From NCBI RefSeq assembly GCF_058153355.1, contig NZ_CM177019.1: 64,000 nucleotides of DNA. The stretch is one strand, 5' to 3'. Of this stretch, positions 9,001 to 12,000 are shown piece by piece (the stretch's first letter is position 1; each line of letters opens with the position of its first letter). Made by a program: the position numbers.

Positions 9001-12000
9001 CGATCATATGCCGTTCTTTTAGACTGGTCTGATCCACCCAGCCCAGCAATTCTGCCGGTTTAATAAACTTCTTCACATCATGCGTACCTTTAGGCACCAT
9101 GCGCAAAATATATTCAGCACCAACCACCGCCATCAGCCATGACTTGCCGTTGCGATTAAGCGTCGAGAAAAAAACATCGCCGCCCGGTTTCACCAGTTGC
9201 GCACAGGCTCTGACCACTGACTGCGGATCGGGGACGTGCTCCAGCATCTCCATGCAGGTCACCACATCATAATGCCCGGCATGTTTTGCGGCGTGCTCTT
9301 CCACGGTTTCCTGCACGTAATTCACCTGAATGCCACTTTCCAGTGCGTGCAGCTTTGCCACCTGCAATGGCTCAAAGCCCATATCCAGACCGGTCACCGT
9401 CGCGCCTTCCCGCGCCATGCTCTCGGCCAGAATGCCGCCGCCACAACCGACATCGAGCACCTTTTTGCCAAATAAACCGCCAGCACGCTCGGCAATATAG
9501 CCCAGACGCAGCGGGTTAATGCGGTGCAGCGGTTTGAACTCACCTTCAAGATCCCACCAGCGGGAGGCGACGGCTTCAAATTTAGCGATCTCTTCGTGGT
9601 CTACGTTAGGGGTTACCGGCGATTTTTCGGCATTCATTGGCACTTCTACTCCGTAATTGGCAAGACAAACGAGTATATCAGGCATTGGATGTGAATAAAG
9701 CGTATAGGTTTACCTCAATCAGCGCGGCTGTGTTATAATTTGCGACCTTTGAATCCGGGATACAGTAGAGGGATAGCGGTTAGATGAGCGACCTTGCGAG
9801 AGAAATTACACCGGTCAACATTGAGGAAGAGCTGAAGAGCTCCTATCTGGATTATGCGATGTCGGTCATTGTTGGCCGTGCGCTGCCGGATGTCCGAGAT
9901 GGCCTGAAGCCGGTACACCGTCGCGTACTTTACGCCATGAACGTACTAGGCAATGACTGGAACAAAGCCTATAAAAAATCTGCCCGTGTCGTTGGTGACG
10001 TAATCGGTAAATACCATCCCCATGGTGACTCGGCGGTTTATGACACGATCGTCCGTATGGCGCAGCCATTCTCGCTGCGTTACATGCTGGTAGACGGTCA
10101 GGGTAACTTCGGTTCCATCGACGGCGACTCTGCGGCGGCAATGCGTTATACGGAAATCCGTCTGGCGAAAATTGCCCATGAACTGATGGCCGATCTCGAA
10201 AAAGAGACGGTCGATTTCGTTGATAACTATGACGGCACGGAAAAAATTCCGGACGTCATGCCAACCAAAATTCCTAACCTGCTGGTGAACGGTTCTTCCG
10301 GTATCGCCGTAGGTATGGCAACCAACATCCCGCCGCACAACCTGACGGAAGTCATCAACGGTTGTCTGGCGTATATCGATGATGAAGACATCAGCATTGA
10401 AGGGCTGATGGAACACATCCCGGGGCCAGACTTCCCGACGGCGGCAATCATCAACGGTCGTCGCGGTATCGAAGAAGCTTACCGTACCGGTCGCGGCAAG
10501 GTATATATCCGCGCCCGTGCTGAAGTGGAAGTTGACGCCAAAACCGGACGTGAAACCATTATCGTCCACGAAATTCCGTATCAGGTGAACAAAGCGCGCC
10601 TGATCGAGAAGATTGCGGAACTGGTAAAAGAAAAACGCGTGGAAGGCATCAGCGCGCTGCGTGACGAGTCTGACAAAGACGGTATGCGCATCGTGATTGA
10701 AGTGAAACGCGATGCGGTCGGTGAAGTGGTGCTCAACAACCTCTACTCCCAGACCCAGTTGCAGGTTTCTTTCGGTATCAACATGGTGGCATTGCACCAT
10801 GGTCAGCCGAAGATCATGAACCTGAAAGACATCATCGCTGCGTTTGTTCGTCACCGCCGTGAAGTGGTGACCCGTCGTACCATTTTCGAACTGCGTAAAG
10901 CTCGCGATCGTGCTCATATCCTTGAAGCATTAGCCGTGGCGCTGGCGAACATCGACCCGATCATCGAACTGATCCGTCATGCGCCGACGCCTGCAGAAGC
11001 GAAAACGGCGCTGGTTGCTAATCCGTGGCAGTTGGGCAACGTTGCCGCGATGCTGGAACGTGCGGGCGATGATGCTGCGCGTCCGGAATGGCTGGAGCCA
11101 GAGTTCGGTGTGCGTGACGGTCTGTACTACCTGACCGAACAGCAAGCTCAGGCGATTCTGGATCTGCGTCTGCAGAAACTGACCGGCCTTGAGCACGAAA
11201 AACTGCTCGATGAATACAAAGAGCTGCTGGATCAGATCGCGGAACTGTTGCGTATTCTTGGTAGCGCCGATCGTCTGATGGAAGTGATCCGCGAAGAGCT
11301 GGAGCTGGTTCGTGAACAGTTCGGTGACAAACGTCGTACTGAAATCACCGCCAACAGCGCAGACATCAACCTGGAAGATTTGATTACTCAGGAAGATGTG
11401 GTAGTGACGCTCTCTCACCAGGGCTACGTGAAGTACCAGCCGCTTTCTGAATACGAAGCGCAGCGTCGTGGCGGGAAAGGTAAATCTGCCGCACGTATTA
11501 AAGAAGAAGACTTTATCGACCGACTGCTGGTGGCGAACACCCACGACCATATTCTGTGCTTCTCCAGCCGTGGTCGCGTCTATTCGATGAAAGTTTACCA
11601 GTTGCCGGAAGCCACTCGTGGCGCGCGCGGTCGTCCGATCGTCAACCTGCTGCCGCTGGAGCAGGACGAACGTATCACTGCGATCCTGCCGGTGACCGAG
11701 TTTGAAGAAGGCGTGAAAGTCTTCATGGCGACCGCTAACGGTACCGTGAAGAAAACTGTCCTCACCGAGTTCAACCGTCTGCGTACCGCCGGTAAAGTGG
11801 CGATCAAACTGGTTGACGGCGATGAGCTGATCGGCGTTGACCTGACCAGCGGTGAAGACGAAGTAATGCTGTTCTCCGCCGAAGGTAAAGTGGTGCGCTT
11901 TAAAGAGTCTTCTGTCCGTGCGATGGGCTGCAACACCACCGGTGTTCGCGGTATTCGCTTAGGTGAAGGCGATAAAGTCGTCTCTCTGATCGTGCCTCGT

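Follow-up and report, generated by a model that had tools for sequence, protein, structure and literature searches.

A wild-type gyrA target region upstream of an IS4-interrupted yfaT and a lambdoid prophage in an Escherichia coli-group genome

Does the gyrA gene of this chromosomal segment encode a gyrase on which quinolones would act normally, and how much does the answer tell about the organism that carries it? The question comes from a preliminary description of the window, i.e., the whole stretch of 64,000 nucleotides from contig NZ_CM177019.1 (assembly GCF_058153355.1) that was analysed here. In that description, codons 83 (TCG, Ser) and 87 (GAC, Asp) were taken as the susceptible alleles, and the common S83L and D87N/G substitutions were stated to be absent. 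Alignment with a reference gyrA was proposed as the check, and misnumbering of the codons relative to the true start was named as what might refute the claim.

The gyrA gene, coding for DNA gyrase subunit A, occupies positions 9784–12411 on the plus strand and consists of 875 codons followed by a TAA stop, according to the ORF list, the translation and the comparison with K-12. Its length of 2,628 nt is the same as that of gyrA in K-12 MG1655 (b2231), and the two proteins, of equal length, are 100% identical (875/875 residues; NP_416734.1). The reference alignment gave 98.02% identity at the nucleotide level, with 52 differences from K-12, every one of which is synonymous (52/52). For the two genes, dS is about 0.087 (636 synonymous and 1,989 non-synonymous sites), and the probability that 52 random substitutions would all be synonymous is about 1e-32; such a pattern of divergence is the ordinary sign of an essential enzyme under strong purifying selection. 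Because the protein is the same as the characterised K-12 GyrA, it would be expected to carry out ATP-dependent negative supercoiling together with GyrB.

In E. coli, the region that determines quinolone resistance (QRDR) comprises gyrA codons 67–106, and among resistance substitutions S83L and D87N predominate (PMC4673309). Counted from the ATG at 9784, the complete QRDR (Ala67 to Gln106) is found at 9982–10101 on the plus strand, and the span from 10018 to 10050 corresponds to codons 79–89, a part of helix alpha4. Codon 83 (10030–10032, plus strand) is TCG, the wild-type Ser codon, where S83L would be TTG, and codon 87 (10042–10044, plus strand) is GAC, the wild-type Asp codon, where D87N, D87G and D87Y would be AAC, GGC and TAC, respectively. 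Both codons could be read directly and are the same as those of K-12, and with 0 amino acid differences from K-12 GyrA the common substitutions are indeed absent, as first described. When the codon table is set against K-12, all of the 40 QRDR residues are the same, and three codons are changed synonymously: V85 (GTT in the window, GTC in K-12), R91 (CGT, CGC) and Y100 (TAC, TAT). Just beyond the QRDR, S111 is likewise synonymous (TCC in the window, TCT in K-12). No S83L/W/A, D87N/G/Y/V or other QRDR substitution (G81, D82, A84, Q106, A67) was found in the window gyrA relative to K-12, and the further sites A51, G81, D82, A84, Q106, A119 and A196 are wild-type. In contrast to the quinolone-resistant gyrA alleles of E. 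coli and Shigella (S83L, S83L+D87N, D87G/Y and others), the window gene has neither an S83 nor a D87 change. The comparison thus supports a wild-type status wider than that first claimed, extending from two codons to the entire QRDR and to all 875 residues of the protein.

What would this allele mean for drug binding? Helix alpha4, next to the DNA gate, carries both Ser83 and Asp87. In E. coli gyrase, a published study indicates, the two residues are anchors of the water-Mg2+ bridge to the keto-acid of the quinolone, a bridge whose role is one of positioning (PMC9917921). Anchored in this way, the bridge would place the keto-acid group of the quinolone in the gyrase-DNA cleavage complex, beside the catalytic Tyr122. 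With Ser83 and Asp87 intact, quinolone binding would then be normal, if the published biochemistry applies to the window protein, and the window GyrA should present quinolones with a fully sensitive target.

These readings depend on the numbering of the codons and on the identity of the gene. If the true start lay elsewhere, the QRDR hot spots would be residues other than those numbered 83 and 87 here. However, the ATG of the ORF is the same as that of K-12 b2231, residues 1–524 align without gaps with residues 1–524 of chain A in PDB 3NUH, and the E. coli GyrA structures 6RKS, 1AB4 and 2Y3P also match in register (E = 0 for the PDB matches). The local residues are those of the canonical E. 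coli QRDR core motif, and the leader, i.e., the 98 nt directly 5′ of the ATG, is that of K-12 apart from two differences (96/98). Given the identity and equal length with K-12 GyrA, the register with 3NUH and the K-12-like leader, the start and the codon numbering are secure. Misnumbering, the refuter named in advance, is rejected because of the K-12 identity and the PDB register, and its remaining probability is negligible. The chance is slimmer still that the gene is the paralogue parC, for topoisomerase IV subunit A, or another type IIA topoisomerase, so that codons 80 and 84 would be the relevant ones. ParC does share the N-terminal fold, with a homologous breakage-reunion domain and an equivalent Ser/acidic pair at its QRDR codons 80 and 84, and the parC models match the window protein strongly and with significant E-values. 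Nevertheless, these matches stay below threshold: the Gram-negative parC model, parC_Gneg, gives 580.3 bits, under its cut-off of 628.9, whereas the NCBIfam gyrA equivalogs TIGR01063 and NF004043 give 1310 bits (cut-off 877) and 1258.6 bits (cut-off 902), respectively. Furthermore, a motif search located the GyrA box QRRGGKG at residues 560–566 (11461–11481, plus strand) in the C-terminal (beta-pinwheel) domain; this box is the motif that separates GyrA from ParC, being absent from the latter. The protein has the length of GyrA, the gene occupies the gyrA locus with the K-12 neighbours ubiG and yfaA on either side, and parC is not in the window. On the NCBIfam scores, the GyrA box and the synteny and complete identity with K-12, the parC assignment is rejected. 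The catalytic site was also found: Tyr122 (codon TAT, 10147–10149, plus strand), the DNA-cleaving active-site tyrosine of E. coli GyrA, follows Arg121 in the breakage-reunion domain's AAMRYTE motif, and the same residue is present in the E. coli GyrA chains of the PDB. A full-length gyrA orthologue at 95–99% nucleotide identity occurs in 5,425 of 5,426 complete E. coli genomes, so that a chance match is not an issue. Moreover, a Logan contig from an independent public assembly (SRR31441161_267) has 100% identical DNA from the end of ubiG through gyrA to the start of yfaA, and the window gyrA is therefore no one-off assembly artefact. It is almost certain that 9784–12411 is the intact chromosomal gyrA of an E. 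coli-group genome (E. coli/Shigella/EIEC type), with a wild-type QRDR and protein that should make it a drug-sensitive target; no observation speaks against the wild-type reading.

Even with a wild-type target, the strain might be less susceptible owing to a plasmid with qnr or aac(6′)-Ib-cr, up-regulated efflux, or changes in gyrB, parC or parE outside the window. In E. coli and Shigella, chromosomal quinolone resistance nearly always takes its first step in gyrA, and the wild-type gene thus argues against high-level resistance; it rules out the usual first-step target-mediated resistance for an isolate of the E. coli/Shigella type. The literature reports PMQR genes from isolates with low-level resistance. 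For wild-type E. coli, the ciprofloxacin MIC is given as about 0.016 mg/L (PMC4673309). On the other side, no resistance gene, qnr-like or other, was found in the window: Pfam scans covering 30 ORFs of the prophage and the ISs revealed no qnr-like pentapeptide-repeat, acetyltransferase or efflux gene, and no such gene appears in the annotations of near-identical relatives of the prophage late genes. Resistance through such outside determinants is judged unlikely, though far less so than either misnumbering or a parC identity. The term "susceptible allele" applies to the GyrA target and not to the strain, since parC, parE and gyrB are elsewhere in the genome; the window likewise permits no conclusion on strain susceptibility, because marR/acrR/soxR and plasmid-borne qnr, aac(6′)-Ib-cr, qepA or oqxAB would lie beyond its 64 kb. 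The use of the wild-type gyrA is limited to routine genotype-to-phenotype prediction, and neither gyrase biology nor that of resistance gains anything from it.

How common is this allele? Exact 39-mers across codons 78–90 were counted in the 5,426 complete E. coli genomes by megablast with a 28-nt word; an internal mismatch kills such a match, and only matches of at least 99% identity were counted. The wild-type haplotype with V85 as GTT, which is that of the window, was found in 2,012 genomes, the wild-type haplotype of K-12 with V85 as GTC in 639, the S83L (TTG) haplotype in 412, and the S83L+D87N haplotype in 1,371. Wild-type 39-mers are thus present in at least 2,651 of the 5,426 genomes (at least 49%), and those with S83L or S83L+D87N in at least 1,783 (at least 33%). 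These four 39-mers account for 4,434 of the 5,426 genomes, and the other 18% have other haplotypes. Among the four tested, the 39-mer of the window is the most frequent. The resistant S83L haplotype is one base apart from it (TCG to TTG) in the same gene and context, and the S83L+D87N haplotype two bases apart (also GAC to AAC). The wild-type QRDR is the expected and commonest state in E. coli, and the wild-type target region is an already known, textbook feature with nothing new in it.

The surroundings of gyrA are those of K-12 as far as yfaT. The order inaA′-yfaE-nrdB-nrdA-ypaB-yfaL-ubiG-gyrA-yfaA-yfaT matches that of K-12 read in reverse, and positions 1–14584 of the window are colinear with 2,349,352–2,334,618 of K-12. 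The gyrA locus of K-12 MG1655 has the same start codon, with ubiG upstream and divergent and yfaA downstream in both; K-12 differs in being without the IS4 and the prophage that disrupt yfaT in the window. In the gyrA leader, an extended -10-like element, TGTTATAAT, can be seen at 9731–9739 (plus strand). The element is identical in K-12, and its promoter function is putative. At the other end, a hairpin, AAAAGGGAG-TTAT-CTCCCTTTTTT, followed by a T-run is seen 18 nt 3′ of the gyrA stop (12429–12452, plus strand) and is likely, from its form, to be an intrinsic terminator. A consensus scan for promoters and terminators over 9600–12600 called neither the TGTTATAAT element nor the hairpin after gyrA; the former was missed by the simple promoter scan because no -35 match was found. 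The same scan returned one intragenic promoter match and one terminator match, fewer than in shuffles, and these were disregarded.

Gene by gene, the chromosomal backbone is 94–98% identical to K-12. The autotransporter adhesin gene yfaL (5095–8775) is intact and is the most divergent backbone gene, with 90–94% identity to K-12; about 22 codons are missing in frame from its passenger region, close to nt 1415–1483 of the K-12 gene. The best matches among the 5,426 complete E. coli genomes reach 99.2% for gyrA and 98.8% for nrdAB. Only one public read-set assembly, a Logan contig of SRR31441161, yielded the exact YfaA protein, alongside identical gyrA DNA. That contig stops near the IS4 insertion point in yfaT, and its end is presumably a break at the repeat. 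A backbone with at most 99.2% identity, the rare YfaA and a prophage of the EIEC type (see below) suggest a Shigella/EIEC-like lineage that falls outside an E. coli-only collection. Tentatively, then, the genome could represent an under-sampled lineage of this kind with a fully wild-type gyrase target, a possibility that we consider less likely than not.

The break downstream of gyrA, where IS4 and an IS-ridden lambdoid prophage interrupt yfaT, is more notable than gyrA itself. From 14585 on, the K-12 gene order is broken. An IS4 of 1,426 bp (14585–16010; 99.9% identical to IS4), with its transposase ORF at 14651–15997, is inserted in yfaT after nt 342 and is flanked by a 13-bp target-site duplication, CCCCTATGTGACC. 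The remnants of yfaT are at 14243–14584 and 16011–16230; compared with K-12, the part left of IS4 shows 94.7% identity and the 220 bp on its right 99.1%. Homology to yfaT stops at nt 549 of 624 (window position 16230), and there the prophage begins. It extends from 16231 to beyond 64000, running off the end of the window, and attR is outside the window. A lambda-type integrase with an arm-binding domain is encoded at 16300–17373 on the minus strand. In E. coli W224N, a 96%-identical integrase adjoins torS, and the arm sequences there differ from those of the window. With this different neighbour and the differing arms, the site inside yfaT looks like a different integration site.

The prophage carries cI/cII/N/Q, NinB, Dam, RusA and lysis genes together with myovirus-like tail genes. 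Its late region (42000–64000; head and contractile tail) shares 99.5% identity with chromosomal prophages of human EIEC-type E. coli, in which it adjoins ipaH. Among 50,697 phage records no close relative of the late region was found, the megablast matches covering at most 9% of the query and corresponding to the IS66 element; hence, no named phage was assignable to the prophage. An IS66-family (ISCro1-like) element is present in two copies. The first (25091–29001; 8-bp duplication GGATGAAG) is situated between the N gene of the prophage (24507–24851) and the genes downstream of cI, and has itself received a second IS4 (25213–26638; 12-bp duplication CTCTCCGGGAAG) that is 100% identical to the IS4 in yfaT. 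With this insertion, early-left transcription of the prophage is probably crippled. The second copy (56026–58498; 8-bp duplication GAACAAAC) is 99.8% identical to the first and splits the tape-measure/lytic-transglycosylase gene into two parts, 55400–56032 and 58579–59898, which makes it very likely that the prophage is defective. The EIEC relative RMDEC364 has the same IS at another position.

There are also accessory genes in the prophage. At the position of rexAB, downstream of a cI-like repressor gene (30873–31580), a three-gene cassette is located on the minus strand (29147–30812), encoding DUF3024 (30471–30812), DUF6978 (29913–30425) and DUF1828 (29147–29923) proteins. The DUF6978 and DUF1828 proteins have matches in PDC-M24, a candidate defence system of PADLOC (A, E = 5e-7; B, E = 7e-11), and the cassette may be a prophage-encoded anti-phage module. 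In the nin region, a gene for a Gp49/HigB-like toxin (36929–37339, minus strand) overlaps that of a small HTH_3 protein (36631–36939, minus strand), the two forming a probable type II toxin-antitoxin pair; in a relative, the annotation reads RelE/ParE plus HTH. Genes for tRNA-Asn(GTT) (40691–40765) and tRNA-Thr(TGT) (40771–40846) are located between those for the Q antiterminator and the holin, which is where tRNAs are found in lambdoid and Stx-type phages.
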